Below are positions 22,940-49,596 of a stretch of DNA of 64,000 bases, piece by piece; positions within the stretch are counted from its first letter, which is position 1; every line of letters starts with the position of its first letter. This DNA is from Parcubacteria group bacterium LiPW_30. Lineage in GTDB: Bacteria; Patescibacteriota; Minisyncoccia; Phycocordibacterales; VMEP01. The stretch lies in contig VMEP01000001.1 in the NCBI GenBank assembly GCA_007375595.1, positions 178,816 to 242,815 on the forward strand, given 5' to 3'. The position numbers and the translations under genes were made by a program. The notes below the pieces were generated by a model, which was not told the origin of the DNA, ran no database searches, and worked only from the letters and a program-made list of their open reading frames with translations.

Positions 22940-22962
22940 TCCTCATATAGAGCGAGAGAAAA

Positions 22963-23703
22963 TTAAACCTGCTCTCTGTAGGGGTCTAGCTGATAGGTAC
23001 TCTCTTTTTTAGGGATAGCAAAGTCGTTAGTTAGTTTTTCGGCGACAATGTTTTTAACTACGGGTGTTTCTTGTATTATTTTTTCTGATCCCTCTTTTCC
23101 ACTTTCAAGCTCAACTTTTATGTCTGGTTGATTGATTTGCAAGACTTCTTTTTTAGGAGGTAAACTTCTCTCCTCTGCTTTTGTTGGAGTTTCAATGTCT
23201 TTTAAGACTGTTTCTCTATTTAGGTTTTCACCCGCTTCGGTAGCTAGTTGTTCATTGTCAACAATCTCTATTCCACTTTCCCTAAGTATTGTTTTATCAA
23301 TTGGTTCTAGGGTTATTTGTACACCACTTTCTTGTGGCAGAGAATTTTCAGAAATATTGCTATGTTTTATTTCAACCATCTCGTCTGTGTTGTGAATTTT
23401 CTTTAGTGATTCACGAATTGAGTCAAAAATCTGTTCGTTGATATCGTGAACGATTAATTCCGCTACATCTTTTGTTACATTGAGTTTTGATTGAATAATT
23501 TCAGAAAAATCATTAGGTTTTGTAAGACCAAACATAACTAAATTTGTTTCATCAACTAAGATTGAGAGCTTGTCTATATGAAGGGAATATTTTGCTCCAA
23601 TATTTCTTATTTTTGAGCCAGTATCAAACCCAAAAAGAACACCTTTAACATCCTCAGGGAGAGATTCAAGCATTTGTTCTAATTGTTGGTTGGTGTAATC
23701 CAT
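22963..23703 (-). CDS. acidic hypothetical protein of T4SS-like operon
   Basis: 246 aa, operonic spacing. Confidence 0.5.
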   Translation of the reverse strand: MDYTNQQLEQMLESLPEDVKGVLFGFDTGSKIRNIGAKYSLHIDKLSILVDETNLVMFGLTKPNDFSEIIQSKLNVTKDVAELIVHDINEQIFDSIRESLKKIHNTDEMVEIKHSNISENSLPQESGVQITLEPIDKTILRESGIEIVDNEQLATEAGENLNRETVLKDIETPTKAEERSLPPKKEVLQINQPDIKVELESGKEGSEKIIQETPVVKNIVAEKLTNDFAIPKKESTYQLDPYREQV

Positions 23704-23726
23704 AGGAAGACTTAGTTTACCTTAAT

Positions 23727-25949
23727 TTACTTCTTTTTTTCGCTACCACCGTCGTCTTTTTTCTTGCTTTCCCTGTCTCTTATTAGATCAAGTTTGTTTA
23801 TATAGTTTTGGAGTGTTCGCGCGTTTGTTTTTGCCATCTCTCTTTCAAGGATTAATTTTGCACGGGCATCTTTGTCTGCCCCCTTGCCAAGGTCTTCAAG
23901 TTCTACGCTTATAGTAGCGGCTTGTTTTGTAAAATTATCAATGGCGTCTTTTACTGAGCCATGGCTACCCATTAATTCTTTTATGGTTTCTTCTAGACCC
24001 GCAATTTCTCTATCAGCTTTGTATTTCTGGTCTATTTCTTTTTCTGCCTTTTTGGTTCCACCGGTATCTCCTATTTTAAGGCTTTGTGGAATAATCTCAC
24101 CTTTTCCAGTTTTTAGTTGGTCAAAATATTCTTTTTGTCTTTCTTGGGTTGTAGTTCTTTGTTTGTCTACCTCGGCTACCTTAAGTTTTTCTGCTCTTAG
24201 TTTATTTACTTCCTCAGAACTTTTACCTGCTTTTTCCGCATCTGTTAAGTCGATACTGTTAATTTCTTTGGTGGTTAGTTTGACCTTCTTAGCTTCAAGA
24301 AGTTTTGCCATCTCAACTCTTTCTTTTCCTAACGCTTCCTCTCCTCGTTTAAGATCTCCCCTGTAGCCATCCTTTAGATTTTCTGGTTTTTTGCCTAAGT
24401 CTAATTTAACGTCAGCAATTCCGGCGAGTTTTGATGCCATACCACCAACAAGAGGTATTTCTCCGGCGGCGCGAACATCAAAACTTGATTTAGCAACACC
24501 TTCGGTCGTCTGTAGTGCGAGGCGACCAACCTTGCTATTTGACGCCCAACCCTTGAAGTTTTCACTTCCCGCAAGTGCGGCAGCCCCTCGTCCGAGTATT
24601 TGTTTTCCAGCAAAACCACCAACACCGCCCACCACAGCCCCAGCTACTGTCATCAACCCGCTAGTTATTGTTCCACTAAGACCATCACATTTTGCGACCT
24701 TGTAAGACGCAATAAGAAAGAAACACACAAGGAAATAACTGAAAATAACAGTTACGCTAGTTGGGGATAAGTCACCGGTGGCTGTCATTCCAGAAAGGGC
24801 ATCGTTTATCCCTTTTCCAGACTTAACAACATTAACAGAAGAAAGAATTTGTAAAGAAACCCAAATGAGCAGAAAGTAGATCGGCGCAGAGAGCGAGTTG
24901 CAAATAAGCTCTTTCCACCATTTGTCAGTGTACTCTTTCAGTTTAGGTAAAATACTACCCAGAAACATAATTGGAGAAAAAGGAAGAAGAAAAATAAGAA
25001 CAGCAGTTCTTGCTATAAAAAGAAATGACGCTTGGAGAAAGATGAAAAACATAATAAAAACCATGACGGCTGTCGCCCACATTTGTGTAGTAACACCCCA
25101 TGCTGTTCCAGCGACTTCTTTTCCAGAGAACATTGTTTCTGCGTCAAATTTCTCCATAAATGCCCCACTAATGCCCACTGCCCCATTGTTTGTTATGGAA
25201 GAATAAAATTGAACAGCGACGATATTTGAGGTGTCGATAATTACTTTCGTAAAAAATAAACTAAAATTAACAAGGAGTGCCGCGAGAATAAGTGTTGGTA
25301 TGAATTTTTTTGCATCGCCTATCTGGAGAATATTTGTAATAGAAACCCAGAGCAACATAAATATAAAAAGAATATTTCCCAAATCTCGGATGGTGCTCCA
25401 GGCGATATTGATTCCATTATTAGATTGCCCAATAAGGGTACCCATTTCAAAGAGACTGAATTTTACTGCAAAATCAAATATTTGCCCGGCAAAACTAACT
25501 AGGAAGGTAAGAATTGTCAAAATAGCGTAACCAAAACCACGGGCGATACAAGCACCCCAGTTTTTAAAAAAACCATTAAGACTAGAACAAGATGCTGTTT
25601 CTTCTAGTGGATCAAAAGCAGAGGGAGGAAGTGTTTTTGCTGTTTCTGCTTGAACACAATTAAGATATTTACCAGAGTTTACGTCTTTAAGATAGGCACA
25701 GGCTTCCTCCGGGGTCATTGAAGTATTTAATGTTGCACCAGAATCCAGAGCTTTTGTTTGGTTATTTCTGTTTTCAATGTCAGTAGGAAGAATACAAGCA
25801 CCACCGTCTGGGTCATCCACAAAAGGTGCTTCGCAAGTCTGCGCACTTACAGTGTTTTCGATAAACAGTGGAAGTAAAAGAAATAGTGAAAAACTAAAGA
25901 AGAGTATTACTGAAAAATTTATTAGTTTTTTAAAAGAAAAAGATATCAT
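23727..25949 (-). CDS. VirB6/TrbL-like polytopic membrane protein with N-terminal secreted Cys-containing domain and C-terminal K/E-rich coiled-coil tail
   Basis: Signal peptide, about 6 predicted TM helices in the middle, charged C-terminal tail. Architecture resembles VirB6-type channel subunits. Confidence 0.4.
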   Translation of the reverse strand: MISFSFKKLINFSVILFFSFSLFLLLPLFIENTVSAQTCEAPFVDDPDGGACILPTDIENRNNQTKALDSGATLNTSMTPEEACAYLKDVNSGKYLNCVQAETAKTLPPSAFDPLEETASCSSLNGFFKNWGACIARGFGYAILTILTFLVSFAGQIFDFAVKFSLFEMGTLIGQSNNGINIAWSTIRDLGNILFIFMLLWVSITNILQIGDAKKFIPTLILAALLVNFSLFFTKVIIDTSNIVAVQFYSSITNNGAVGISGAFMEKFDAETMFSGKEVAGTAWGVTTQMWATAVMVFIMFFIFLQASFLFIARTAVLIFLLPFSPIMFLGSILPKLKEYTDKWWKELICNSLSAPIYFLLIWVSLQILSSVNVVKSGKGINDALSGMTATGDLSPTSVTVIFSYFLVCFFLIASYKVAKCDGLSGTITSGLMTVAGAVVGGVGGFAGKQILGRGAAALAGSENFKGWASNSKVGRLALQTTEGVAKSSFDVRAAGEIPLVGGMASKLAGIADVKLDLGKKPENLKDGYRGDLKRGEEALGKERVEMAKLLEAKKVKLTTKEINSIDLTDAEKAGKSSEEVNKLRAEKLKVAEVDKQRTTTQERQKEYFDQLKTGKGEIIPQSLKIGDTGGTKKAEKEIDQKYKADREIAGLEETIKELMGSHGSVKDAIDNFTKQAATISVELEDLGKGADKDARAKLILEREMAKTNARTLQNYINKLDLIRDRESKKKDDGGSEKKK

Positions 25950-25953
25950 GCTT

Positions 25954-28146
25954 TTAGTATGTTTGTGGAAGGTTTTGTTTTTTTCTCTCTTCTTCCGCTA
26001 AAATTTCTTTATGCTCCGCTTCACAAGAGGTAATCATGCTTTTTGTTGTGTCACGAATCGTTCTTGCTTGGGACAATTGAGAGGAAGCGTTTGTCACCAC
26101 GTCAGAACTAGGGATTCTCCCTGAGGTCGAGATATTTATTAATTCGCCGGCTGCGGATTGGTAATCAACATCTTTTTTAGCAACAGCATCTTTAAGGGTA
26201 TATAGATCAATCATTGTTCTTGCTGCTGTTTCAATTTCGCTATCTAGGCTTGTTATTGCTTGGTTGTATAAAGTTGCTCTGTCGAAAAGAGAAGCTACCC
26301 CAGAGTTTGATTGATTTGCAAGGTTGCTTGGACAGTAAGTTACAGGCCCTAGTTTTATTAGAGAATCGGTTGCTACGGCTGCTTCGGAGGTAACGTTGCG
26401 GAGTTCGTCTATGATGGTGACATAAGCAATTAATGAGTTTGCTGTTTTTTCTATGCTATTAACAACATCGTTTGAAGAATTTATTTCTTGGTTTGAGATT
26501 TCTCTTGCCGTGGCGTTATTGTCGGTAGTATCCCAGAAAGACGAGTTTGAATCTGTGAGATAGTTTTGGAGTGCTAAGTCTGCCGTAGAAATTGTTTCGT
26601 TTGAGTCTGCTCCGATGTTGCCAGCGTTTCTTTCTGGGGCTGTTGCGGCAGAGCGAAGTTTTTCTTCGATAACTGATGCCGGAGTAATAACTTTATATTT
26701 TCGACAAGCCCCAGAGGTGGCGTCTACTTCCACACACTCTTCTATTGGCGAAACACCATTAACTAGTTTGTTTTTTGCCTCCTCTGATTTTTTGTCTTGA
26801 TCTTCCTGATAAATTCTTTCTGTGGCAACAAGGTACCCAAATCTGTTGTTTGATTCAATTTGGGTTAAGTTGTTCCAGCCTTTCCATCCACCAGCGGAGA
26901 AATCACCATTGCGAAATTTTGCAGCATTCGCTGAACCAATAATACTTGGGAGGCTGTCATTTAAGGCGCTTGCACTATTTGTAGTATTTTTTGCCTGTTC
27001 ACTGCTTACGATATTTTTTATTGCTTCATTTTTATAAGGAGAATTGCTCTTTGATAAGTCAGAGAGGAAAAGTTTTGTTTGGTTTTGTGTTTGCTTAAGC
27101 AAGTAATCATTCATGTTCGTGACATAAAGAGGGTTACCATTATTCCCTGTGTTTAACCAGTTGCGGATATTGTTTTCCATCTTAGCTCTTGTTATTAAAG
27201 AGCTCGTGTAAGAAAGTCTGTTTAGGCAAGTTTCTTTTGTTTTAAGAATACTCGTGTCTTGCTGAAGAGTGTTTATTTGTTTAACAATTGTTTGAGGGTC
27301 TGTTGGAACGGGGCCACTGCCTCCTATTAAAGAAAGTATTGAACCAACCCCAGGAATAGCACTAGCGCCACTAAACATAGAGCCTAATTCTCCTGCTGTA
27401 TATCCAGCAGACATTCCGCCGAGAGTATTTCCAAGACTAACCAAGCTACCAGAACCAATAGTTCCACCTAAATCTATGAGAACATTGGAAACGGCGTTTG
27501 TTGCACCAGAAAGTAGATCGCTTGATAAAGCGCTCGTTACTAATTTATCTGCTCCGCCAACAATAGCGCTTGTTCCAGATTGAATTGCACCACTAATACC
27601 ACCCGCTGAACTATCCGCTCCACTTACAGCTTGGTTAATTCCTTGGTTTATAGCGCTTGTTGCTCCGGTTACTGCGGTATTGGCGGCTTTATCTACGATA
27701 GAACCAACAGCACTTCCAACACTATTCCCTATTTGGCCACCACCGAGGGCGCCACTTATAGCACCAGAGGCGGAAGAACCAAGCCCACTTATTCCTGCCC
27801 CACTAATGAGTTGTTGTCCAAGAGAAGAAAGAGTGTTACCGATTGCTCCGCCGAGCGCGGTACACCCAGAGTTTCCCAGTGTTTCAGCCATAGATTCGTT
27901 GGAGGAGTTTAGACTTTTTCTTGTATCGAGAGCCTGGGTTTCTGAATCCCTGTTATCTATATCAGACGGAAGAATACAAGAACCTGGACTTGTTGGGTCA
28001 TCAACGAAACCGTCTGTACAGCCGTCAACTTCTTGAGCCTTGGCGTTGTTTGTATTAAAAAATGACGGCGAGAGAATAATCAGAGAAACAAGAATCACCG
28101 AAATTATTTTTTTTACCATATTCCTTTTAGCAGAAAATAGAACCAT
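25954..28146 (-). CDS. large secreted Gly/Ser/Ala-rich repeat protein; N-terminal domain paralogous to that of 23727..25949
   Basis: Signal peptide. Shared motif FVDDP..G.CILP.DI.NR...T.ALD with the downstream gene. Long GxxGxxS low-complexity region. Confidence 0.5.
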   Translation of the reverse strand: MVLFSAKRNMVKKIISVILVSLIILSPSFFNTNNAKAQEVDGCTDGFVDDPTSPGSCILPSDIDNRDSETQALDTRKSLNSSNESMAETLGNSGCTALGGAIGNTLSSLGQQLISGAGISGLGSSASGAISGALGGGQIGNSVGSAVGSIVDKAANTAVTGATSAINQGINQAVSGADSSAGGISGAIQSGTSAIVGGADKLVTSALSSDLLSGATNAVSNVLIDLGGTIGSGSLVSLGNTLGGMSAGYTAGELGSMFSGASAIPGVGSILSLIGGSGPVPTDPQTIVKQINTLQQDTSILKTKETCLNRLSYTSSLITRAKMENNIRNWLNTGNNGNPLYVTNMNDYLLKQTQNQTKLFLSDLSKSNSPYKNEAIKNIVSSEQAKNTTNSASALNDSLPSIIGSANAAKFRNGDFSAGGWKGWNNLTQIESNNRFGYLVATERIYQEDQDKKSEEAKNKLVNGVSPIEECVEVDATSGACRKYKVITPASVIEEKLRSAATAPERNAGNIGADSNETISTADLALQNYLTDSNSSFWDTTDNNATAREISNQEINSSNDVVNSIEKTANSLIAYVTIIDELRNVTSEAAVATDSLIKLGPVTYCPSNLANQSNSGVASLFDRATLYNQAITSLDSEIETAARTMIDLYTLKDAVAKKDVDYQSAAGELINISTSGRIPSSDVVTNASSQLSQARTIRDTTKSMITSCEAEHKEILAEEERKKQNLPQTY

Positions 28147-40731: not shown

Positions 40732-41655
40732 ATGACTCAAGATCTAAAGAGTTTAAAACAACAATTTCTTGAATATATTGAAATTGAACGTGGAAGAAGC
40801 TTAAAAACTGTTCGTAATTACGATGCTTATCTCGAGCGTTTTCTTACTCAAACAAACGCTAAATATCCAAAAGATATAACTGATGATTCCATAAGGGAAT
40901 TTCGTCTTTGGTTGAATAGACAAGAAGGTCGTCGCGAGCGTGGAATGAGTGCGGGAACGTTAAAAAAGAAAACCCAAAACTATTATTTGATTGCTTTACG
41001 TATTTTTCTTAAATATTTAATGAAAAGAGGTATCGAAGCTCTTTCCCCTGATCGTATTGAGCTTGCAAAGGTGGCAGAGAGGTCCCTTGATCTTATTTCT
41101 TTAGATGAATTAGAGCGATTACTTAAAGCTCCTGATGGCGAGGATTTAAAAAGCTTACGAGATAAGGCTATTTTAGAATTACTTTTCTCAACAGGGCTTC
41201 GTGTTTCGGAACTTTGCTCTCTTCCTCGTGATATTGATCTTCGCAAAGATGAATTTTCGGTACGAGGAAAAGGAGAAAAAGTACGGGTTGTCTTTCTTTC
41301 CGATTCAGCAAAAGAAGCAATTAAAAAATATTTAGCAAAGCGAGGAGATATGGAGGATGTTCTTTTTATTGGAACAGGAAGCGTTGGAAAAAAGAAAGGA
41401 GAAATAACACACCTAACGACCCGTTCGGTTGAAAGAATCGTTGCGCAATATGCAATTAAGGCCGGTATCTCAAAAAAAGTAACCCCACACGTTATCAGAC
41501 ACTCATTTGCCACAGACCTACTTGGTAATGGGGCAGATATTCGTTCTGTTCAAATGATGCTTGGGCATGCCAGTATTTCAACCACACAGATTTACACGCA
41601 CGTAACTGACAAGGCTCTCAGAGAAATACATAAGAAGTTCCACTCTAAAAAATAG
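40732..41655 (+). CDS. tyrosine recombinase, XerC/XerD family
   Basis: RHSFATDLLxxGADIRxVQxMLGHASISTTQIYTHV catalytic C-terminal signature including the Tyr. Confidence 0.8.
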   Translation: MTQDLKSLKQQFLEYIEIERGRSLKTVRNYDAYLERFLTQTNAKYPKDITDDSIREFRLWLNRQEGRRERGMSAGTLKKKTQNYYLIALRIFLKYLMKRGIEALSPDRIELAKVAERSLDLISLDELERLLKAPDGEDLKSLRDKAILELLFSTGLRVSELCSLPRDIDLRKDEFSVRGKGEKVRVVFLSDSAKEAIKKYLAKRGDMEDVLFIGTGSVGKKKGEITHLTTRSVERIVAQYAIKAGISKKVTPHVIRHSFATDLLGNGADIRSVQMMLGHASISTTQIYTHVTDKALREIHKKFHSKK

Positions 41656-42844: not shown

Positions 42845-43000
42845 TTTATTTCGGCTAGCGAGGAGCGCGTGGACGAGTACTCTCGTACACAGCGTCCGAG
42901 CGAAGACGAAATACAGGTCTAATACTTCACCGCTTACAGTAATAAATCGCAGGCAAGGCGAGATAATACCCTGTCGGCTTGCCGTGAGAAACCTTTATTT
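42845..43000. repeat. GC-rich structured element related to 40495-40670; overlaps 3' end of cca
   Basis: Shares cgaggagcgcgtggacgag (the window-wide GGAGCGCG motif), ccgagcgaag and ataccctgtcggcttgccgtg with the other element. Confidence 0.35.
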
Positions 43001-44464
43001 TACCCAATGCTTTTTTCTTATCTCAGAGACTTCTTTTGATTCCTCCTCTTCTTTTTTAGCTTTTCCTTCCTCTCCCAACTTCTTTAGCTCTTCAATTGAG
43101 AGTTTTATCAGCTCAACTGAACGTTTTTCTAGATATTCAGTCGTATTTCTTTCTGGTTCATCAAGTACTTCCTCAAGTAGGGCATGTAAAACATAACCTA
43201 TTTTAGGGCCTGGAGTTTCATGTGTAACTTCCATAATACGTTTCCCGTCTATTTTTAACATAGCAACCGATATCGGCGCACGCATTGCTTCTTCAATCAT
43301 AGACTCATATTTTCTAAGCCGATACGGGGTCTCTTTTGGTCTTCCCATGCCGATACGGTCGCAGGCGCGAAGTTTCATTAAATCCCAAACATGTTCTGGC
43401 CCAACGTTTTTTACGATACGCCTTACTGCCGATAAGGTTATTTTGTCTACATCTGAGAAAAATAAATGGTAACGCACTAACTTTGAAACAACATCTACGA
43501 TTTCTCGTGGAAAACGCATTCTTTCAAGAATTTTTTTTGTTACACGTGAACCAACGACATCATGTCCATAGAAGGTGTAATCTTTCTTTTCGTCAGACCA
43601 ACGACGTGTTTCAGGCTTAGAAACATCATGAAATAGAGCAGAAAGTCTCACGTGTAACGGCCATTCACGATCTGCTGAGTGTTGCAACGCCCTTAGGTTA
43701 TGCTCCCAAACGTCATAGATATGGTCACCATTCTGTTTAACATTAATCCCCGCTTCTGTTTCAGGTGAAACATATTTAAGAATACCAAGCCGATTAGCTA
43801 AAACTATTCCAATCATTGGGTTTGGAGACATAATCAATTTAATGAATTCATCACGAATACGCTCCTGAGCAATTTTACCGAGGTTTTTAACGTTATTTTC
43901 CAAGGCTTTTTCGGTCTCATTGTTAATCATGAAACCTAATTCAGTAGCTAGTCTGATAGCTCTGAGGACACGAAGGGCATCTTCTGCAAATCTTTCTTCT
44001 GGATTACCAACAGCCCTGATAACTTTGTCCTTTATATCTTTTTGTCCGTTATACGGATCAACAATTTGTCCTTTAGTAATATCATAGGCGATTGCGTTTA
44101 TAGTGAAGTCTCGTCGCTTTAAATCATCTTCTAGGTTTTTACTAAAAACAACTGAATCTGGTCTGCGGTAGTCGCTATATTTTCCCTCAATTCGATATGG
44201 GGTTATTTCAACCACCTTTAAAGATTCATCTTCAGTATTTTCGTTCACAACACCAACTGTTCCATATTCATTTTCATAAAATGTTTTTGGAAAGATTTTG
44301 ATAATATCTTCCGGTCTTGCATTAGTTGTGAAATCCCAGTCTTTTGGTTTTCTTCCCGCCAACACATCACGAACACAACCTCCAACTAGATATGCTTCAA
44401 AACCAGCTTTTTCCAAAGATTCGCTTATGGCGCCTATGTTTTCTGGAATATTTTCCGGTTTCAT
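42995..44464 (-). CDS. cca: CCA-adding tRNA nucleotidyltransferase with HD domain
   Basis: GGCVRDxLLG...DxD polymerase-beta head motif plus HD domain. Adjacent to tRNA genes that do not encode CCA. Confidence 0.8.
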   Translation of the reverse strand: MKPENIPENIGAISESLEKAGFEAYLVGGCVRDVLAGRKPKDWDFTTNARPEDIIKIFPKTFYENEYGTVGVVNENTEDESLKVVEITPYRIEGKYSDYRRPDSVVFSKNLEDDLKRRDFTINAIAYDITKGQIVDPYNGQKDIKDKVIRAVGNPEERFAEDALRVLRAIRLATELGFMINNETEKALENNVKNLGKIAQERIRDEFIKLIMSPNPMIGIVLANRLGILKYVSPETEAGINVKQNGDHIYDVWEHNLRALQHSADREWPLHVRLSALFHDVSKPETRRWSDEKKDYTFYGHDVVGSRVTKKILERMRFPREIVDVVSKLVRYHLFFSDVDKITLSAVRRIVKNVGPEHVWDLMKLRACDRIGMGRPKETPYRLRKYESMIEEAMRAPISVAMLKIDGKRIMEVTHETPGPKIGYVLHALLEEVLDEPERNTTEYLEKRSVELIKLSIEELKKLGEEGKAKKEEEESKEVSEIRKKHWVK

Positions 44465-44528
44465 TGTTTAAAAATTTTACTCCAGGTTTTGATATTTTCC
44501 TAATTTTCCTTATGATGTATGGGATTAA

Positions 44529-44600
44529 GCCCCCGTAGTGAAATGGATATCACGACAGTCTTCGAAACTGTTATTCCAGGTTCGAATCCTGGCAGGGGCA
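44529..44600 (+). tRNA. tRNA-Arg (anticodon UCG); CCA not encoded; one C-A mismatch in acceptor stem
   Basis: Manual cloverleaf: acceptor GCCCCCG/CAGGGGC, D-stem GTGA/TCAC, anticodon stem ACAGT/ACTGT with loop CTTCGAA, T-arm CCAGG-TTCGAAT-CCTGG. Confidence 0.7.
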
Positions 44601-44608
44601 TATGAATA

Positions 44609-44725
44609 TGCCCCTGCCAGGATTCGAAAGCCGGAGCGCGACGGTGCGAGGCGGGGCTGCGCAAAAATTCAGCAGAATTTTATGCGTAGCCGAATCACTT
44701 TGTTTATAAGTCGTGACCGAATCCT
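44609..44725 (+). repeat. tRNA-tail element copy 1: 20-nt exact antisense of tRNA-Arg 3' end + conserved core AGCCGGAGCGCGACGGTGCGAGGCGGG + aaaattcagcagaatttt hairpin + cgtgaccgaatcc
   Basis: Sequence 44609-44628 is the exact reverse complement of tRNA positions 44581-44600 (8-nt spacer). Core shared with three other copies. Confidence 0.7.
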
Positions 44726-44775
44726 TGTTTTATTTGAACTTATCTTAATCTCTGTTAAAATACGTCGATAAAAAT

Positions 44776-44846
44776 GCGGGTATGGTTTAGTGGTAGAACA
44801 CGTCCTTGCCAAGGATGAGACGGGAGTTCGATTCTCCCTACCCGCA
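44776..44846 (+). tRNA. tRNA-Gly (anticodon GCC)
   Basis: GCGGGTA acceptor, anticodon loop CTTGCCAAG, T-arm GGGAGTTCGATTCTCCC, discriminator A. CCA not encoded. Confidence 0.85.
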
Positions 44847-44850
44847 CAAA

Positions 44851-44890
44851 ATTAAAATAACCCGTCTTTAAGACGGGTTATTTTAATTTT
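44851..44890 (+). terminator. rho-independent terminator after tRNA-Gly(GCC)
   Basis: aacccgtctttaagacgggtt hairpin followed by a T-rich run. Confidence 0.55.
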
Positions 44891-44891
44891 T

Positions 44892-45010
44892 GCAGAGGGA
44901 GAATCGAAAGCCGGAGCGCGACGGTGCGAGGCGGGCTTAATTGCGATAAGTGAAACAATTGAGAGACGGAGGCTGACGAGCCGAGTTGGGGTCGCTAATA
45001 TTACGGACAA
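44892..45010 (+). repeat. tRNA-tail element copy 2 (13-nt antisense of tRNA-Gly(GCC) T-arm + core + ~100 nt identical to copy 4; right end degenerate)
   Basis: gcagagggagaatcgaa then agccggagcgcgacggtgcgaggcgggcttaattgcgataagtgaaacaattgagagacggaggctgacgagccgagttggggtcgc, identical to 47340-47438. Confidence 0.65.
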
Positions 45011-45252
45011 TTTTTCACATAAATGAGCATATTTTGTAAAGAGTAATCTTATAAAAATAAGGCTAAAATAGGTCAAAAGTGGGGATAAGTCGGGGGACAA
45101 TGTTAATAAGAGACACTAAAATTGTCCAAGAAAAAGACCTTTAAATGCTCTAAAACGGCTTTAAATAAGGATATATTGTCTTTTTCCACAGAAACTGTTT
45201 ATAAAGTTTCACGTGAAACTAAAAAGGTGTTTATTTTGGTATATAATCATAT

Positions 45253-45672
45253 TTGATGGATTCAAAAGTATTGAAAAATAAGGAGAGGCAACAGGTTGGT
45301 AGACTTGGGGAAGATATTGCTTGTCGCTTTTTAGAAGAAAAAGGTTTCAGTGTTATTGATAGAAATTACAGAAAGTTTATTGGAGAAATAGACATTATTG
45401 CCAAAAAGGACAAAATTTTATACTTTGTTGAAGTAAAAACTGTTTCTCGTGAAAACTTCAAAGAAGGTGAAAGTGGGCCAACTTCTCAGTATAGGGCTGA
45501 GGATAATATTCATCCACAAAAGTTAAAGCGCTTAAGCAGAGCAATTAACTCCTATCTTTCAGAAAAAGTGGGAAATGTTGATTATGTTTGGCAATGCGAT
45601 GCGATTATTGTTAATTTATTCACTGCTAACAAGATTGCAAAAGTTAAATATTTAGAAAATATTTTTGCGTAA
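45253..45672 (+). CDS. YraN-family (UPF0102) putative endonuclease
   Basis: GEDIACRFLEEKGFSVIDRNYR...GEIDIIA...FVEVKTV matches the UPF0102 restriction-endonuclease-like fold signature. Confidence 0.7.
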   Translation: MMDSKVLKNKERQQVGRLGEDIACRFLEEKGFSVIDRNYRKFIGEIDIIAKKDKILYFVEVKTVSRENFKEGESGPTSQYRAEDNIHPQKLKRLSRAINSYLSEKVGNVDYVWQCDAIIVNLFTANKIAKVKYLENIFA

Positions 45673-45729
45673 TTTTTTGTTTTTTGTGATAGGATTGATA
45701 AATTGTCGGATTGGAGGGGTTTGTTTTTA

Positions 45730-45800
45730 CGGGGTGTAGTATAGAGGTAGTACGTCTGCTTTGGGAGCAGATAGCCCGAGTTCGATTCTCGGCACCCCGA
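45730..45800 (+). tRNA. tRNA-Pro (anticodon UGG)
   Basis: Acceptor CGGGGTG/CACCCCG, anticodon stem TCTGC/GCAGA with loop TTTGGGA (G37), T-arm CCGAG-TTCGATT-CTCGG. Confidence 0.8.
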
Positions 45801-45848
45801 ATGTAGCGAAGCATAGTGAGGGTTGAGCGAATGAACTGCTTCATTCGC

Positions 45849-45956
45849 GTCCGGAATCGAAAGCCGGAGCATGTCGCTCTGCGACAGCGAGGCGGGGTCG
45901 CGAGTACTTATGAGCAAAGCGAATTGGTAACTCGTGACCGATTCTCGGCACCCCGA
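45849..45956 (+). repeat. tRNA-tail element copy 3 (antisense T-arm of tRNA-Pro + variant core + exact 17-nt sense copy of tRNA-Pro 3' end)
   Basis: gtccggaatcgaaagccggagc...gaggcggggtcgcg...cgtgaccgATTCTCGGCACCCCGA; the last 17 nt equal tRNA positions 45784-45800. Confidence 0.65.
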
Positions 45957-45973
45957 CAATGTAACTAAAGTTT

Positions 45974-47128
45974 TTAATTTGTCTCACTGATCAATAAGAA
46001 CATTAGTGGGATAGATAGATTTTCACGAAAATCTTTTTGAATCAAATCCAAGTCTTGTGAAATAAATTCATTTAAGTTTTTTCCGGTTTCATTCTCTATT
46101 TTTCTATTAATATGACCAGGTGTAATAGCAAATAATTCTCTGGTGTTTGTTTCTTTTGTTTCTGTGCTTGTTGTAATAATTCCTTCAAGTTTCCCAGTTG
46201 AACGATTGACCACCGCTCCACCAGAAGATCCTTGCTGAGAAAGAATGTTTCCTTCAATTGAAATAATGTCTAGTAAAGCACCATCATGGAAGTTATATAA
46301 TTCTTTAATAACACCGATACTTGAGGTAAGAAAAAGATTTGTTTGAATTGTTACACCGCCTAAAAACCCAGCAGGGTAAGCAGAAATTAAGACAGGAAGG
46401 CCACGCAATACATTTTCTGGGTCTATGTTTGGCTCGAGATAGGGGAAGGTGAGTGGTAATTGTTTTCCGTCTGTTGTCCCAACAACACGAAGAAGGGCGA
46501 AATCGTCTTCACCTGTGCCAGTTGGCTTTTCTTGTTTGATAACTTTTGAATTTTCGGTTACCCATTTTTTTGAGACATAGATAGGTTCAATCAAAAAAGC
46601 TGGTGAAGCAGGGGAGCCTTGTCTTGCGATACAGGTTATATAATTTTTTACTCCGTAATCACGAAGTAGGAAGTATTGTCCAATGTGGGCATTTGTTAGA
46701 ATAACTCCTTTATCGCTAATAAAGACCCCACTTCCCGATAATGGCTTGAAATCGCCACCATTTTGAGTGGTACAAAGGATATTAACAATAGTACTGCGGG
46801 TTAGTGCATTCAGTGGTTCAAGAGGGAGAATTTCAAGCGTAATGGTGCGTGGGCTTGTGGAGGCGATAGCGATTGGTTCTGTTTTACTTACAGTTGTTGT
46901 TTTTAGATTTTTTGGGGTCGTTGTTGCGGTTTTTTTAAGTGAGTTTATGGTCGTTGTTCCTTTTTCTATTGATGATGTAATTTTGGGAGAATTGTTTTCG
47001 GTTTTTATTATATTAAGTGGTGTTGTTTGTATTTCTTTTTGAGTGTTGTGTATAGGGAATACCGAAAAAACCCCGGCGATGATGCCAATTATGGTGTTTT
47101 TTAAAATAATTCCTAAGGTTTCAAGCAT
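45974..47128 (-). CDS. membrane-anchored trypsin-like (S1) serine protease
   Basis: Catalytic triad contexts TNAHI (His), DFALLRV (Asp), GSSGGAV (Ser). N-terminal TM helix. No PDZ domain recognised. Confidence 0.7.
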   Translation of the reverse strand: MLETLGIILKNTIIGIIAGVFSVFPIHNTQKEIQTTPLNIIKTENNSPKITSSIEKGTTTINSLKKTATTTPKNLKTTTVSKTEPIAIASTSPRTITLEILPLEPLNALTRSTIVNILCTTQNGGDFKPLSGSGVFISDKGVILTNAHIGQYFLLRDYGVKNYITCIARQGSPASPAFLIEPIYVSKKWVTENSKVIKQEKPTGTGEDDFALLRVVGTTDGKQLPLTFPYLEPNIDPENVLRGLPVLISAYPAGFLGGVTIQTNLFLTSSIGVIKELYNFHDGALLDIISIEGNILSQQGSSGGAVVNRSTGKLEGIITTSTETKETNTRELFAITPGHINRKIENETGKNLNEFISQDLDLIQKDFRENLSIPLMFLLISETN

Positions 47129-47223
47129 TGATTTGTTGCTTCGTGATAAGTTTACTAAATATTACCTTATCTGATAATATGTCGGATACATAGTTTGCCA
47201 CTAAAGTGAGCATACTCGGGCAA

Positions 47224-47294
47224 GCGGGATTAGTTAAATGGTATAACTCCAGTTTTCCAAACTGGTGTCGGGAGTTCGATTCTCCCATCCCGCA
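47224..47294 (+). tRNA. tRNA-Gly (anticodon UCC)
   Basis: Acceptor GCGGGAT/ATCCCGC, anticodon stem CCAGT/ACTGG with loop TTTCCAA, T-arm GGGAG-TTCGATT-CTCCC. Confidence 0.85.
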
Positions 47295-47331
47295 CTGAAT
47301 TTTAACAAAACTAACTAAGGTTAGTTTTGTT

Positions 47332-47474
47332 GCGGGATGGGAGAATCGAAAGCCGGAGCGCGACGGTGCGAGGCGGGCTTAATTGCGATAAGTGAAACAA
47401 TTGAGAGACGGAGGCTGACGAGCCGAGTTGGGGTCGCCGAAGCAAATTATCCGTGACCGATTCCCATCCCGCAC
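47332..47474 (+). repeat. tRNA-tail element copy 4 (19-nt exact antisense of tRNA-Gly(UCC) 3' end + core + body shared with copy 2 + near-exact sense copy of tRNA 3' end)
   Basis: gcgggatgggagaatcgaa is the reverse complement of ttcgattctcccatcccgc. Right end cgtgaccgattcccatcccgcac. Confidence 0.7.
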
Positions 47475-47484
47475 AAAAAAATAA

Positions 47485-47516
47485 AAAACCGCATTCATGC
47501 GGTCTTTTATTTTTAG
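47485..47516 (-). terminator. rho-independent terminator of hup
   Basis: accgca-ttca-tgcggt hairpin followed on minus strand by a T-run. Confidence 0.5.
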
Positions 47517-47529
47517 AGATGAGTGAATG

Positions 47530-47802
47530 TTACTTCACTGCGTCTTTCAAACCCTTGCCTGCGCGGAACTTAGGAACGTTCATTGCTGGTACGTTTACTG
47601 GTTCGCCAGTGCGAGGATTTCGGGCGGTTCTTGCTGCGCGTTTCTTTACAACGAATGTTCCGAAACCTGCAACAGAGACCTCATCACCTTTCTTTAGTGA
47701 TTTTACGATCGAGTCAAACACTGTCTCAACAGCTTGTTCTGCAGAAACTTTTGTTCCGCCTAACACTGCATGGACTGCGTCGACGATTGCTGCTTTATTC
47801 AT
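47530..47802 (-). CDS. hup: DNA-binding protein HU
   Basis: 90 aa. GFGTF and RNPRTGE arm motifs. Confidence 0.9.
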   Translation of the reverse strand: MNKAAIVDAVHAVLGGTKVSAEQAVETVFDSIVKSLKKGDEVSVAGFGTFVVKKRAARTARNPRTGEPVNVPAMNVPKFRAGKGLKDAVK

Positions 47803-48066
47803 TTTTTTAAGTAGCTACTTAAACGATTAATAATGCTCGACCGAGTTTTATTATGGTCATACACGCGTATGAACCGCCTTAAGACCACGCAAACATTATA
47901 TATCAGGCCGTTTTTTAGGCAACAGCAATAAAGCAACAAAAGGTTATTGGTTGAAAAATGGGGAAGAAAAAATTGAAAAAGGGGAACAATTGGGGTGATA
48001 TTCTACAACAAAAAAACTAGGAGTGCTCCTAGTTTTTTTGTTGTAGAATATAGGTTTTTTGACTTT

Positions 48067-49596
48067 TTATCTTGCGTATTCAATAACACGAGATTCGCGG
48101 ATGACATTTATCTTTATTTCACCTGGGTATTTCAATTCTTTCTCAACACGAAGGGCAATTTCTTGCGCCATCTTCTTGGCTTCAAGGTCGCTAACTTTTT
48201 CAGGGTAAACAAAAATACGAACTTCTCTTCCAGCTTGAAGTGCGTAAGTTTTTTCAACGCCTTCAAAAGAATTTGCTATAGCCTCAAGATCACCCAATCT
48301 CTTTAGGTAGTTTTCTGCGGTATCGCGACGTGCTCCAGGGCGACCACCAGAAATTGCATCGGCCGTTTGAACAATTATTGATTCAATTGTTTCGTAAGGG
48401 TACTCATCATGATGTGATTGCATTGCTTGAATAATACGAACATCAGCGCCGTACTTCTGAAGGATGCGCCTGCCGATATCAACATGAGTTCCTTGCACTT
48501 CATGGTCGACGGCCTTACCAATATCATGCAAAAGAGCTCCGGCTTTAGCGATTGTGACGTCACCGCCCAATTCTTCTGCAAGCATTCCGGAAATATGTGC
48601 CATTTCTAGTGAGTGCTGAAGAACATTTTGTCCGTAACTTGTGCGGAAATATAATCTTCCTAAAATCGCGATGATTCGTGGGTCAACATTAAACAATCCG
48701 CATTCGTAAACAGCTTGTTCTCCTTTTTCTTTAATTATTTTATGGATTTCATTTTTTGCTTTTTCAACCATCTCTTCAATTTTTACTGGCTGAATGCGAC
48801 CATCAAGAATTAAGTTCTCGAGCGCGACTCGGGCAATTTGCCTGCGAACAGGATCGAAAGAGGAAATTATGATGTAACCAGGAGTATCGTCGACAATAAG
48901 CTCGACTCCAGCAGCGCGCTCAAATGCCCGAATATTTCTTCCTTCTTTTCCGATAATTTTCCCCTTAACTTCGTCCGATGGAATTGTGACGTTTGTCGTC
49001 ATTATTTCAGCAGCAGTTGAGGAAGCAAGGCGTTGTATTGACGTGGCTAAAATATCCTTTGCCTTACGATCAAGACGCTCGGCATTGGCTGTTTCTAGTT
49101 TTTGCATGCGGATAAGCATGTCTTCCTCGTACCTTTTTTCTAGGGTAGCAAAAAGTTCCGCCCGCGCTTCTTCTTCCGTAAGCTTTGTTACGCGCTCAAG
49201 TTCACTTTGGTGCTTTAACAAAATTTCTTCAGTTTCTTCTTTAACCTTTGCGACTTCTTCGATTTTGTTTTTTAAACTCTCTGCCTCCTTACTAATATCA
49301 ACTTGGCGTTGATCAAGAAGACTCTCTTTGTTAATGAGGCGTTCTTCTGTCTTTTTAAATTCTGCATCGTGCTTTTTCTCTTCTTCGCGGAGCTCCTCCA
49401 TTCTTGTCTCCGCCTTTTTTACCGCTTCGTTTACGATTTTACCGGCCTCTTCTTTGGCCTGGAGAGTCATCTGCTTGATTTGAAGCTCCATGGACCCCTT
49501 TTTCCCCAAAAGGACGAGCCAGCGCAAAATATAACCGATTGCGATACCCGCTACACCAGCTACGGCGACTAGCGCCAAAACTATCTTAAGACTCAT
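48067..49596 (-). CDS. rny: ribonuclease Y (TM anchor + KH + HD domains)
   Basis: N-terminal TM, long coiled coil, KH (GKIIGKEGRNIR), HD domain (HSLEMAHISG...LLHDIGK). Confidence 0.85.
   Translation of the reverse strand: MSLKIVLALVAVAGVAGIAIGYILRWLVLLGKKGSMELQIKQMTLQAKEEAGKIVNEAVKKAETRMEELREEEKKHDAEFKKTEERLINKESLLDQRQVDISKEAESLKNKIEEVAKVKEETEEILLKHQSELERVTKLTEEEARAELFATLEKRYEEDMLIRMQKLETANAERLDRKAKDILATSIQRLASSTAAEIMTTNVTIPSDEVKGKIIGKEGRNIRAFERAAGVELIVDDTPGYIIISSFDPVRRQIARVALENLILDGRIQPVKIEEMVEKAKNEIHKIIKEKGEQAVYECGLFNVDPRIIAILGRLYFRTSYGQNVLQHSLEMAHISGMLAEELGGDVTIAKAGALLHDIGKAVDHEVQGTHVDIGRRILQKYGADVRIIQAMQSHHDEYPYETIESIIVQTADAISGGRPGARRDTAENYLKRLGDLEAIANSFEGVEKTYALQAGREVRIFVYPEKVSDLEAKKMAQEIALRVEKELKYPGEIKINVIRESRVIEYAR

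Follow-up and report, generated by a model that had tools for sequence, protein, structure and literature searches.

A small non-coding element follows each of four clustered tRNA genes in Parcubacteria group bacterium LiPW_30, and we give about an even chance (probability near 0.5) to the reading that it belongs to a family of mobile insertion elements, small (~100-250 nt), non-coding and non-autonomous, which home to the T-loops of tRNA genes and leave the tRNA intact, through what we infer to be a copying mechanism. The element is common in Patescibacteria and Elusimicrobia and matches no described family. Its tRNA-sense strand folds as a conserved three-way junction, insertion is between T-loop positions U55 and C56, and the element is probably copied in from its 3' end.

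Four element copies in the window

The window analysed here is a stretch of 64,000 nt (GCA_007375595.1, VMEP01000001.1:178,816-242,815, forward strand). An initial annotation, made from the letters of this stretch, had described four clustered tRNA genes, each followed by an element copy with tRNA-specific ends. All four tRNAs were called as stated (Table 1), none of them encodes CCA (0/4), as had also been claimed, and the observation as a whole is confirmed and extends far beyond the window. The near-invariant 27-nt core is exact in three copies (at 44629, 44909 and 47351; chance expectation, 0 matches), and the hairpin that had been noticed in the Pro core measures 16 nt against 8 nt. The right-end motif CGTGACCGAWTC is found at 44712, 45933 and 47452. 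The second and fourth copies, which had been said to have about 100 nt in common, share 99 identical nt.

Table 1. Coordinates of tRNA genes, element copies and related features in the window
Feature	Position	Strand	Basis
tRNA-Arg(UCG) (gene anticodon TCG)	44529-44600	+	ARAGORN; Rfam tRNA 64.9 bits
Arg copy: cap/loop, 8 nt, tRNA end to 5' arm	44601-44608	+	sequence; inside 23-nt perfect palindrome
Arg copy: 5' (antisense, guide) arm, final G pairs with C56	44609-44626	+	exact reverse complement of 44583-44600
Arg copy: junction AA(A), P2 (GCC-GGA-GC[GCGACGGU]GC-GA-GGC), GGG junction	44627-44655	+	exact core; CM 83.8 bits; MFE fold
Arg copy: P3 hairpin (GCUGCGCA...UGCGUAGC), bulged A, AGCA loop	44656-44690	+	CM alignment; MFE fold
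Arg copy: decayed first right arm CGAAUCAC, then older-copy 3' remnant (..GUCGUGAC), then its right arm CGAAUCCUUG	44691-44727	+	sequence
tRNA-Gly(GCC)	44776-44847	+	ARAGORN; Rfam tRNA
Gly-GCC copy, whole	44848-44995	+	sequence, exact core, CM, repeat analysis
Gly-GCC copy: terminator-like cap hairpin	44848-44890	+	
Gly-GCC copy: 5' arm	44894-44908	+	
Gly-GCC copy: core	44909-44935	+	
Gly-GCC copy: second core module	44936-44995	+	
tRNA-Pro(UGG) (gene anticodon TGG)	45730-45800	+	ARAGORN; Rfam tRNA
Pro copy ('type B'), whole	45801-45956	+	sequence; CM 54.7 bits; MFE fold
Pro copy: P0 hairpin, AACUGCUU loop	45827-45848	+	
Pro copy: 5' arm	45849-45859	+	
Pro copy: core, 16-nt hairpin	45860-45896	+	
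Pro copy: P3	45897-45938	+	
Pro copy: right arm = C56-A73	45939-45956	+	
tRNA-Gly(UCC) (gene anticodon TCC)	47224-47295	+	ARAGORN; Rfam tRNA
Gly-UCC copy (composite), whole	47296-47473	+	sequence, core, right-end motif, CM, MFE fold, repeats
Gly-UCC copy: cap hairpin	47296-47331	+	
Gly-UCC copy: 5' arm	47332-47350	+	
Gly-UCC copy: core 1	47351-47377	+	
Gly-UCC copy: hairpin and core 2	47378-47437	+	
Gly-UCC copy: 3' remnant of older copy	47438-47457	+	
Gly-UCC copy: oldest right arm, 2-nt deletion	47458-47473	+	
Intrinsic terminator 3' of Gly-UCC right arm (native tRNA flank)	47488-47513	+	terminator scan
'Mini-type' core relative, no tRNA link	7415-7501	+	CM matches 34-45 bits; sequence
Further 'mini-type' copy	2790-2877	-	CM matches 34-45 bits; sequence
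Further 'mini-type' copy	2965-3049	+	CM matches 34-45 bits; sequence

The Arg copy is a newer copy stacked over an older remnant. It has two right ends, GUAGC followed by CGAAUCAC at 44686-44698 and GUGAC followed by CGAAUCC at 44713-44724, where the initial annotation had seen one; its exact 20/20 antisense match (44609-44628 against 44581-44600) and right arm of about 9 nt stand. Segment C56-A73 of this tRNA (44583-44600) is both target and repeat unit, and arm and spacer make up a 23-nt perfect palindrome with a centre of 2 nt. Longer versions of the stack are found in strains L053 and L122. The Gly-GCC copy has the 13-nt antisense match and the lost right end reported before: the window allele is right-truncated, without the P3 3' strand and right arm, and strains L122 and L053 have an intact element with an 18-nt repeat. 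In the Pro copy, the spacer of which carries a partial acceptor-antisense, the earlier antisense match of about 11 nt with an indel holds as 11-12 nt with one bulge, and the right end is exact over 18 nt, not 17. The Gly-UCC copy has the claimed 19/19 antisense match (47332-47350) and a 16-nt right arm from which 2 nt are deleted. Compared with strains L125 and L130 it lacks 77 internal nt, and other alleles were seen in L125, L130 and L122. The terminator scan, which bears on transcription, places this copy between the tRNA and its native terminator, and the native flank of tRNA-Gly(UCC) is conserved across all strains compared. The 'mini-type' core relatives gave no match to Rfam.

Distribution and linkage to tRNA genes

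The core is present in at least 120 species-level genomes, nearly all of them Patescibacteria and Elusimicrobia, and in viral contigs its pattern gave a chance match only. A same-strand tRNA end lies at most 400 nt upstream of 98/128 exact cores (median gap 63 nt; 32 anticodons), and the same arrangement is seen in 114/152 covariance-model matches, so that about 75-77% of copies are tRNA-linked: most core matches, if not every one, lie downstream of a tRNA, a point that the initial annotation had proposed to check. Its other proposed check, whether the flanks match the upstream tRNA, came out positive, the sense arm scoring a median of 17 against its own tRNA and 7.2 against other tRNAs, and the antisense arm 11 and 7.3. 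Copies are carried by 118/233 tRNAs in loci that were picked for having one, and about 15% of the remaining tRNAs in such loci are occupied. The unit between the repeats is only 100-250 nt long in more than 100 genomes. Orthologous copies are kept across diverged genomes, for example at tRNA-Trp(CCA) in L029, L080 and L102.

A conserved three-way junction

The tRNA-sense strand folds as P1 - AAA - P2 - GGG - P3, P1 being the 5' arm paired with C56 onward, taken either from the downstream repeat or from the tRNA itself. In the seed alignment 89.5% of cells are paired, compared with 76% in shuffles and at most 44% with slid partners, and compensatory changes occur at 20 pairs; among 69 further distinct sequences 89.7% are paired, 28/33 pairs are compensatory and the G.U wobble is present in 66/69. 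P3 contains 48 G.U pairs and 0 A.C pairs, and therefore the folding strand is the tRNA-sense strand. MFE folds give P1, P2 and P3 again (z-scores -2.7 to -5.2); folding and a covariance model had both been suggested as checks at the outset. Covariation in the junction is strong. About 35 positions around the junction (G/AAA, GCC-GGA, GA-GGC-GGG, GUCGC/GUGAC) are invariant in the seed, which spans several Patescibacteria lineages; in the broader alignment, to which Elusimicrobia copies also contribute, almost every sequence keeps a G.U wobble 3 bp from the junction. Tandem sheared G.A pairs are located at the base of the middle helix.

Insertion between U55 and C56

All exact repeats 10 nt or longer (48/48) begin at C56. 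Their ends concentrate between N73 and +2 and, tandem units aside, trail off as far as about +40 nt; repeat length ranges from 18 to 57 nt. GUGAC, GUAGC or GUGGC precedes 53/59 downstream repeats of C56 onward, and the repeat boundary is exactly the P3/P1 junction. Insertion takes place between U55 and C56 of the tRNA T-loop. The unit opens with a duplicate of C56..N73(+x) and continues with the cap hairpin, 5' arm, G/AAA, P2, GGG and P3 (..GUGAC); the original C56..N73 comes after it. Because the unit brings its own C56..N73 copy, the upstream tRNA remains complete. In many copies tRNA and core are separated by a terminator-like hairpin.

The antisense matches described at first are present in all four window copies, but the two final A's of every match are part of the invariant junction (G-AAA). 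Antisense arms as long and perfect as those of the window are exceptional, typical arms being 6-10 bp: across 81 copies the uninterrupted antisense match mostly spans no more than 6-10 nt, and in young insertions with a perfect repeat only about 7 nt. The idea that the arms are copied from the target thus holds for the sense arm, which behaves as a target duplication anchored at C56, and not for the antisense arm, which is no fresh copy. Of the cases in which right arm and tRNA are not the same, 76 have the 5' arm paired with the tRNA and 23 with the right arm; closed P1 is therefore not what old copies preserve. In 91/96 copies the right-arm helix does not exceed the tRNA helix in length.

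Signs of mobility and decay

Among near-identical strains, L122 and L123 have an empty tRNA-Pro site; in L124 and L053 an element with a perfect 30-bp repeat occupies it, and the flanks are otherwise identical. At one and the same tRNA, sister strains carry different element subtypes. Units in tandem were seen in L095, L120, L066 and L007. Every stack has the order arm, 3' fragment with GUGAC at its end, arm, the truncation beginning right at the arm end; this polarity is seen in the Arg and Gly-UCC copies of the window, in the Arg copies of L122 and L053 and in the Gly-UCC copy of L126. Among loci chosen for intact cores, few solo 5'-truncated copies stand beside tRNAs without a full element. 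Some strains have gene islands after tRNA-Gly(UCC), in which neither repeat nor core was found. The comparison of tRNA loci across strains that had been called for thus shows presence and subtype varying at the same tRNA, and the 'tiny mobile or gene-converting element' of the initial annotation is supported by the empty and filled Pro site, the subtype swaps, the stacks and tandems and the 99-nt segment common to two loci.

Coding content and possible partners

No ORF was found in the element, and no protein cluster occurs in more than 13/120 loci. Xer-like recombinases, which are housekeeping genes here, lie nearby in only 3/120 loci. A cca-like gene adjoins the window tRNA cluster and is not a recurrent neighbour of the element in the 120 loci. 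No reverse transcriptase or nuclease partner was found among 20 large window ORFs scanned, and an obvious source of reverse transcriptase is missing because group II introns are reported absent from Patescibacteria (PMC13011429). The element has no Rfam family, ribozyme and intron models do not match it even at E<=1, and no paper containing the core was found in the literature, in agreement with the earlier statement that no element of such architecture is described.

Comparison with known systems

In integron attC and CTXphi attP a hairpin of one strand, with bulged bases, reconstitutes the duplex recombination partner. The element resembles them in its hairpin mimic of a duplex, its bulged bases and the matching order of the product, and differs in being much more conserved, in its RNA-like pairs and in having no associated integrase. 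Like MITEs, it is small, non-coding, multi-copy and flanked by a duplication; unlike theirs, its duplication is of variable length with a fixed start, its specificity for tRNA T-loops as targets is absolute, and it has no conserved terminal inverted repeats, since the P1 arms differ from copy to copy. Target-primed insertion of the SINE/LINE type, including that of site-specific R2, offers a further comparison: the shared features are a non-coding, non-autonomous unit, a precise 3' junction, a target duplication of variable length, 5'-truncated dead copies and a template 3' end homologous to the target. Set against these elements (for the context of R2 see PMC11331408), ours is bacterial, has no known RT partner and no poly(A) or tail repeat, has its duplication anchored at one tRNA position, and has two target-related arms.

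Mobile introns are likewise mobile structured RNAs whose site is recognised by pairing with flanking gene sequence, but the element is 5-10 times smaller, matches no Rfam intron, leaves the tRNA uninterrupted, carries a duplicate of its 3' part and has a guide that pairs downstream of the insertion point. The theta/HDV-like ribozymes 3' of phage tRNAs (PMC10879173) are also small structured RNAs downstream of tRNA genes; the element, in contrast, is a three-way junction in which no nested pseudoknot was found, does not lie directly against the tRNA end, carries arms and repeats derived from the tRNA, and is chromosomal, not viral. Islands and prophages integrated at T-loops, such as mycobacteriophage Ms6 (PMC1762012), share the direct repeat from T-loop to tRNA 3' end, the restoration of the tRNA by an element-borne copy, a target that follows the carried sequence, and tandem integration. 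In Ms6 a 26-bp attP core sets the target, and editing of this core switches between tRNA-Ala genes (PMC1762012). The element differs from such islands in that it is only 100-250 nt long, has no integrase inside or linked nearby, possesses a conserved single-strand fold and a 5' antisense arm, places one core at 32 anticodon types with cognate arms at each, and leaves 5'-truncated remnants.

Possible mechanism of insertion

The element would be transcribed together with the tRNA, and the ends of its RNA could come from tRNA 3'-end processing. P1 would be a duplex folded from a single strand with the same sequence as the target duplex, and because P1 mirrors this duplex, the two arms can pair with both strands of the cognate tRNA gene as a double guide. 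The guide-like RNA suggested earlier would survive within such a homing mechanism only, and not as a trans-acting regulator. The bottom strand would be nicked at U55/C56 and its 3' end would prime copying from the 3' end of the element; a second nick at or after N73 would produce a direct repeat of variable length, aborted copying would leave 5'-truncated copies, and the copying and nicking enzyme would be supplied in trans. After insertion the right arm decays, gene conversion swaps cores between loci, and the inverted repeat with the tRNA end can become perfect, presumably by quasipalindrome template switching, which would give the 20/20 and 19/19 arms of the window. Against this reading, the terminator-like hairpin between tRNA and core would limit co-transcription, and direct-repeat recombination plus deletions could also yield empty sites, tandems and stacks. 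The insertion events are deduced from strain alleles, and RNA and single-stranded DNA intermediates would both fit the sequence. The copying mechanism does not explain how an element comes to have different arms on moving to a new tRNA species.

Alternative explanations

It is possible, if rather unlikely, that the element is mobilised by a tyrosine recombinase acting in trans on a single-stranded or very small circle, the P1 hairpin mimicking the duplex from T-loop to tRNA 3' end; as a variant, it would act like the core attP of a T-loop-targeting integrase. The models are CTXphi attP and integron attC, which are integrated by tyrosine recombinases in trans. Strand exchange at U55/C56 and replication predict tRNA(1-55), arm, cap, antisense arm, core/P3 and original arm, which is the observed order; the T-loop-to-tRNA-end repeat is a classical signature of integrases crossing over in the T-loop, the target switching of Ms6 fits, tandem units are typical of site-specific integration, and the invariant bulged A and G.T wobble could be structural recognition marks, as in attC. 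No reverse transcriptase would be needed, and the Xer-like recombinases are housekeeping genes. Yet no integrase is linked to the element (3/120 loci with a Xer-like gene nearby), viral contigs gave only the chance core match, the junction is conserved far more than attC-type sites, the tandem G.A and frequent G.U pairs are RNA-like, the repeat length varies (18 to 57 nt), and extra, oddly precise deletions would be needed for stacked remnants that are all 5'-truncated exactly at the arm end. Less probable is a tiny intron-like or self-cleaving ribozyme, in which the junction positions the bond 5' of the C paired with the guide G (U55/C56, or C81/C82 at P3/P1) and the 5' arm is an internal guide; with cleavage and ligation at both of these equivalent bonds, the unit would be excised, circularised or reverse-spliced into T-loops, and the duplicated 3' exon would make splicing dispensable. 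The ~35 invariant junction-clustered positions and the near-invariant wobble 3 bp away suit a ribozyme, as do the exact coincidence of the P3/P1 junction with the repeat boundary, the tandem sheared G.A pairs, which recall those of hammerheads, and an 'open' variant, with an arm hairpin before the core, in the second core module and in old copies still pairing with the tRNA. Theta ribozymes provide a precedent 3' of tRNAs (PMC10879173). However, known ribozyme and intron models fail to match even at E<=1, neither an HDV-like double pseudoknot nor a hammerhead core could be fitted by hand, and a reverse transcriptase would still be required to fix insertions in DNA.

A host-beneficial tRNA trailer, whose fold or 5' arm/tRNA pairing controls termination, 3' processing, CCA addition or tRNA quality control, appears improbable, and the initial suggestion of a structured trailer RNA regulating 3' processing or CCA addition finds poor support. 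Such a trailer would account for the co-orientation with, and position directly downstream of, the tRNA (98/128; 114/152), for 5' arm-tRNA complementarity kept after right-arm decay (76 versus 23; 91/96), for the persistence of the orthologous Trp-CCA copies and for the cca-like gene beside the cluster. But occupancy is partial (118/233 in selected loci), presence and subtype at the same tRNA differ between strains, truncated copies are tolerated, cca is not a recurrent neighbour, and a 20-bp antisense to the tRNA 3' strand is expected to hinder tRNA folding. That the copies are inert scars of larger tRNA-integrated islands, spread and homogenised by gene conversion only, is very improbable. 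The repeat of the tRNA 3' part does resemble attL/attR, gene conversion between loci is evident (99-nt identity), and there are gene islands after tRNA-Gly(UCC) in some strains; however, these islands have no repeat and no core, the whole unit measures only 100-250 nt in more than 100 genomes, and the core has almost the same sequence in different phyla, while every helix shows compensatory changes.

Copies in the window

The 64-kb window contains exactly four tRNA genes, which all lie on the + strand, and the 27-nt GC-rich core AGCCGGAGCGCGACGGTGCGAGGCGGG occurs exactly at three positions behind them, where none is expected by chance. The copy behind tRNA-Pro(UGG) has the same core flanks and a longer internal hairpin. 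The initial annotation held that each element is bounded by an antisense and a sense copy of the 3' end of its own tRNA, and all of these matches were found again in the window; the stretch of about 100 nt that it described as common to the two Gly copies is real and amounts to 99 identical nt. In the Arg copy, the antisense arm together with the end of the tRNA makes up a perfect palindrome of 23 nt around a 2-nt centre. When compared with loci and contigs of other genomes, including sister strains (L numbers), the Gly-UCC copy corresponds to the L125 allele minus 77 nt, and the Gly-GCC copy, of which L122 and L053 carry the intact form, is truncated on the right. The gene next to tRNA-Arg that was called cca does belong to that family by its domains, but its adjacency to the element does not recur in other loci.

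Features in the window and in compared loci
Feature	Coordinates	Strand	Basis or remark
Mini-type copy	2790-2877	-	covariance model; not tRNA-linked
Mini-type copy	2965-3049	+	covariance model; not tRNA-linked
Mini-type copy	7415-7501	+	covariance model; not tRNA-linked
dnaN-dnaA pair; TraG-like P-loop ATPase, then two 730-740 aa ORFs without Pfam match	11881-14568 and 19939-28146		
Xer-like tyrosine recombinase	40732-41655	+	Phage_integrase and N-terminal SAM-like domain; 3 kb from tRNA cluster
CCA-adding / poly(A) polymerase family gene	42995-44464	-	PolyA_pol, PolyA_pol_RNAbd, HD; divergent from tRNA-Arg
Four tRNA genes	44529-47295	+	ARAGORN, Rfam
Exact 27-nt cores	44629, 44909, 47351		
Stacked older remnant, Arg copy	44691-44727		also Arg in L122, L053
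Stacked older remnant, Gly-UCC copy	47438-47473		also Gly-UCC in L122, L126
GUGAG-type variant	L004 3977-4129		
Island of small ORFs	L123 1732-about 4000		window orientation; also L124, L127, L129
Palindromic insert	L053 7335-7400		

Family spread and tRNA linkage

A scan of one genome per species with the exact pattern GAAAGCCGGAGC-N(4-30)-GCGAGGCGGG yielded at least 120 species-level loci. Six matches in GC-rich coding DNA (L003, L011, L020, L061, L073, L113) are obvious chance occurrences. These aside, the hosts are Patescibacteria (Saccharibacteria-labelled MAGs, Paceibacterota/Parcubacteria and many named candidate groups) and Elusimicrobia (at least 10), plus a few short contigs binned elsewhere, the host genomes being MAGs, which may be mis-binned and in which repeats may have collapsed during assembly. 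A viral origin was rejected: viral contigs gave one core-pattern match, in a capsid region, which is a chance match with the same sequence as the one in Kaistia.

The expectation that every core lies downstream of a tRNA holds for 98 of 128 exact cores, which have a same-strand tRNA ending at most 400 nt upstream (median gap 63 nt, 32 anticodons); most of the other cores are situated at contig ends. The covariance model that we built found 152 copies, 114 of them tRNA-linked by the same definition. The flanks match the tRNA they stand behind, as the initial annotation had proposed from four copies: scored against the 3' 24 nt of tRNAs, the sequence after the core reaches a median of 17 with its own tRNA versus 7.2 with other tRNAs, and the antisense arm 11 versus 7.3. 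Occupancy is partial (118 of 233 tRNAs in the loci, about 15% of non-index tRNAs), and these figures, like those on conservation, are biased because the loci were selected by the exact core.

Anatomy and fold

Alignment of all copies gives the order tRNA, cap, 5' arm, G/AAA, P2, GGG, P3 and C56 to N73 of the tRNA, with P2 reading GCC-GGA-GC(variable hairpin)GC-GA-GGC and P3 reading GUCGCnnn(variable hairpin)A-nnnGUGAC. The cap is a hairpin kept within subfamilies and often terminator-like. Covariation argues that the element folds into a three-way junction, P1 - AAA - P2 - GGG - P3 - P1'. Of the cells in an alignment of 33 copies without gaps, 89.5% are paired, against 76% in shuffles and at most 44% with slid partners; 20 pairs show compensatory changes and a bulged A is invariant. 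A further 69 distinct sequences, in an alignment that is model-fitted and leans towards the model, are 89.7% paired, with compensatory changes in 28 of 33 pairs (including C-G to A-U at the base of P2) and with the G.U wobble in GUCGC/GUGAC retained in 66 of the 69. Energy minimisation alone recovers the fold of the window copies, with z-scores of -2.7 to -5.2. Since P3 shows 48 G.U pairs and no A.C pairs, it is only the tRNA-sense strand that folds. Beside the junction, Watson-Crick UUCG/CGAA in P1 alternates with predicted tandem sheared G.A (UGAG/CGAA, CGAG/CGAG), which appears to be an RNA-like feature.

Insertion site and turnover

The direct repeat of the tRNA starts at T-loop C56 immediately behind GUGAC in every one of the 48 copies whose exact repeat spans 10 nt or more. 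Near 252 tRNAs, 59 downstream repeats of C56 onward were found, of which 53 are preceded by GUGAC, GUAGC or GUGGC. The repeat usually ends between N73 and +2, in other copies up to about 40 nt beyond the tRNA end and in tandem units (three in L095; also L120, L066 and L007) farther still; the duplication is 18 to 57 nt long. Across the loci, the discriminator is very often followed by the two bases CA, behind both tRNA and repeat, which may be a processing signal; the exact end of the duplication is thereby blurred.

Strain-level contigs, retrieved via the neighbouring HU protein, allow filled and empty sites to be compared. The tRNA-Pro site is empty in L122 and L123, where the site's own flank directly follows the tRNA, and filled in L124 and L053, whose flanks are identical and whose element lies between perfect 30-bp repeats CGATTCTCGGCACCCCGACAATGTAACTAA; the window and L125 carry another element subtype there. 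These empty sites need not be ancestral and could have arisen by loss. At tRNA-Gly(UCC), the element is composite in one group of strains, and a second group carries 'type B', the subtype with the longer core hairpin, with a covarying core; both alleles lie upstream of one old right arm with a 2-nt deletion.

Other inserts occur at these sites. In some strains, islands of 1.5-2 kb, made of small ORFs without Pfam match and without a repeat of the tRNA end, replace the element between tRNA-Gly(UCC) and the HU gene. Another palindromic insert, CCCGCCCGTACCGAACG...CGTTCGGGCGGG, of which the window has no copy, interrupts, in L053, an incomplete second copy of the 5' half of tRNA-Pro and, in L131, adjoins a rearranged element without its tRNA about 250 nt before the HU-side flank.

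Where generations of the element are stacked, the older copy is always a 3' fragment that ends with GUGAC and its arm, and it starts exactly at the end of the newer copy's arm. Copies truncated at the 5' end are found in stacks only. The precise 3' junction, the variable duplication and the 5'-truncated old copies fit synthesis from the 3' end of the element on a nicked target, and simple recombination would fit this pattern less well than target-primed-type synthesis.

The two arms

The perfect Watson-Crick run of the 5' arm, counted from the junction, is usually 6-10 nt long and covers the 3' half of the T-loop and the 3' strand of the T-stem. The median run is 7 in copies with a repeat of 18 nt or more and 9 in those whose repeat has decayed. 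Since young insertions lack longer antisense runs, the 5' arm would be inherited and not made at insertion, and the idea that the arms are copied at insertion is rejected for the 5' arm. The first 6 bp of its pairing are common to nearly all tRNAs, which would make it easier for the element to spread to new tRNAs.

In old copies, decay of the right arm leaves the pairing between the 5' arm and the unchanged tRNA in place (76 versus 23 informative positions); the helix with the tRNA is at least as long as that with the right arm in 91 of 96 copies. By both counts, selection for a closed P1 is unsupported in old copies. The window arms with 20/20 and 19/19 matches sit in old copies with decayed right arms, and their length is probably due to quasipalindrome perfection by template switching. 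Internal segments move between loci by gene conversion, because 99 identical nt stand at two loci and swapped cores are combined with locus-specific left parts at tRNA-Pro.

Known classes and candidate helpers

Rfam 15 contains no match for the element: only tRNA passed, both at E<=1 in 43500-48500 and at gathering thresholds in the whole window and 18 loci. One LOOT RNA, unrelated to the element, passed in L093. The core string was absent from all of about 8 million papers, and keyword searches gave no description of the element.

A linked protein was sought by all-against-all clustering of 2633 ORFs, and no cluster occurs in more than 13 of 120 loci; the top clusters near the element are housekeeping-like as judged by sequence. 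No ORF fits inside the unit, and none of the 20 large window ORFs scanned is a reverse transcriptase or transposase. A LAGLIDADG-like ORF, recognised by sequence motifs, lies near tRNA loci in 9 of 120 loci (e.g., L046_8 in L046) and probably derives from introns of group I, a type common in Patescibacteria.

Mechanism and rival explanations

The element is probably a mobile insertion with a functional single-strand fold. We consider it about an even chance (roughly 0.5) that it is a non-autonomous mobile element that homes to U55/C56 of tRNA genes, keeps the tRNA intact through the duplication of C56-N73 and combines 3'-end copying with a double guide. What the sequences show is the architecture, the anchor at C56, the fold, the strain polymorphism, the polarity of stacking and the absence of a cis-encoded protein. 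In the proposed course of events, the element would be transcribed together with the tRNA (the sole predicted terminator of the Gly-UCC copy lies behind the right arm), its ends would be set by tRNA 3' processing, its arms would pair with the target, and the target would be nicked and then copied onto by a polymerase. The idea that copying begins at the element's 3' end, on a nicked target, and that the pair of arms serves as a double guide to both strands is itself a tentative proposal. SINE-like target-primed retroelements resemble it in the precise 3' junction, the variable duplication and the 5'-truncated copies. Such retroelements also use an RNA intermediate and a reverse transcriptase/endonuclease partner; the 20 window ORFs scanned include no reverse transcriptase. 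A CCA footprint would mark copies derived from mature tRNA; among 45 copies, CCA follows the right copy only in 8, the left only in 2 and both in 2, counts that are unconvincing because of the general CA bias after N73.

A rival route is insertion of a folded single strand or by an integrase. Phage Ms6 gives a precedent for T-loop cores in integrase-type integration (PMC1762012). Islands that integrate into tRNA genes by a tyrosine integrase are, like the element, flanked by a direct repeat of the tRNA 3' segment, but they carry the integrase inside or adjacent, whereas the element is too small to code for one. The Xer-like recombinase of the window is probably a housekeeping enzyme and not a linked partner, since a homologue lies within 8 kb of the element in only 3 of 120 loci. 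Integron attC and CTXphi-type sites are one-strand hairpins with extrahelical bases, recombined by a tyrosine recombinase; a one-strand fold and an invariant bulged A were observed in the element, R/L boxes and a link to a recombinase were not. The PATEs derived from IS200/IS605 have subterminal hairpins and insert 3' of a short motif without target duplication, in contrast to intact copies of the element, which always have a long direct repeat, and this class was rejected. So were MITEs, which need conserved terminal inverted repeats and a duplication of fixed length; the arms of the element depend on the tRNA and its duplication varies.

The element might also be a minimal ribozyme or intron. 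Covariance models of hammerhead, HDV-like (theta), twister, pistol and hatchet ribozymes gave no match in 18 loci and 43500-48500, a negative that is not absolute since such models cover minimal HDV-like folds poorly. Fitting by hand failed as well: the junctions read AAA and GGG, a P1/P1.1/P2 nesting could not be drawn, and the element shows neither the hammerhead core CUGANGA...GAAA nor the nested double pseudoknot of HDV-like ribozymes. Group I introns (at least about 200 nt, with a P3-P9 core) and group II introns (at least about 600 nt, with domains I-VI including D5) interrupt their host gene; here the unit is 100-250 nt, the upstream tRNA is complete and intron models gave no match. Two further rivals are a host function in tRNA maturation, to be set beside partial occupancy and empty tRNA-Pro sites, and inert scars, to be set beside the compensatory changes of the fold.

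We regard it as unlikely, but worth stating, that the element belongs to an undescribed kind of genetic parasite that homes by itself under RNA guidance. A three-way-junction RNA of about 100 nt, whose closing helix copies the target duplex, would invade both strands of the tRNA gene at the T-loop with its arms, and insertion would be made by the RNA itself, as a minimal intron-like ribozyme at U55/C56, or a host enzyme would be recruited and copy the element in. If true, bacteria would have a SINE-like or mini-intron class with a spare 3' exon, by virtue of which the essential host gene would never depend on splicing.

The reading as a non-autonomous element homing to tRNA genes, if confirmed, would add a new class of mobile element and structured RNA in bacteria with the smallest known genomes. 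Such bacteria are thought to be poor in mobile elements. It would also mean that essential tRNA genes can be colonised safely by means of a replacement 3' part. The choice of target seems to be written in two short arms beside an invariant junction; such arm-coded targeting would be a candidate for programmable, site-specific insertion, and the invariant junction is a candidate ribozyme. Through the pseudo-tRNA 3' ends, long palindromes and tandem repeats that they give rise to, the units can mislead the annotation of tRNAs, the assembly and the prediction of att sites in MAGs of Patescibacteria and Elusimicrobia.

Relatives and neighbouring features

Two related forms, neither with a credible Rfam match, imply that the superfamily is broader than the exact core of the scan. 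In the mini-type, a long AU-rich stem, which differs in each copy and contains U.G pairs, encloses UUACGGAGC-hairpin-GCGAGUA and a second hairpin with the loop CAGCAG. Its three window copies have no flanking repeat, tRNA neighbour or Rfam match. The GUGAG-type variant (about 130-160 nt) looks core-less, has the U55/C56 site and the same tRNA 3' repeat (in L004, and in L030 at tRNA-Leu-TAA), opens with GUGAG and contains GACUCG-AAGCC and ..GUACUG..CUGUAAGGUU. A GUGAG...GUACUG...CUGUAAGG module is nested behind GGCGGG in the long variants of L012, L041, L043 and L101. A third insert, at tRNA-Arg(TCT) in L012, has the same kind of repeat. The dnaN-dnaA pair of the window suggests a replication origin nearby. 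The third mini-type copy, which does not differ between five strain contigs, lies 25 nt behind the ruvC stop and could serve as a terminator.
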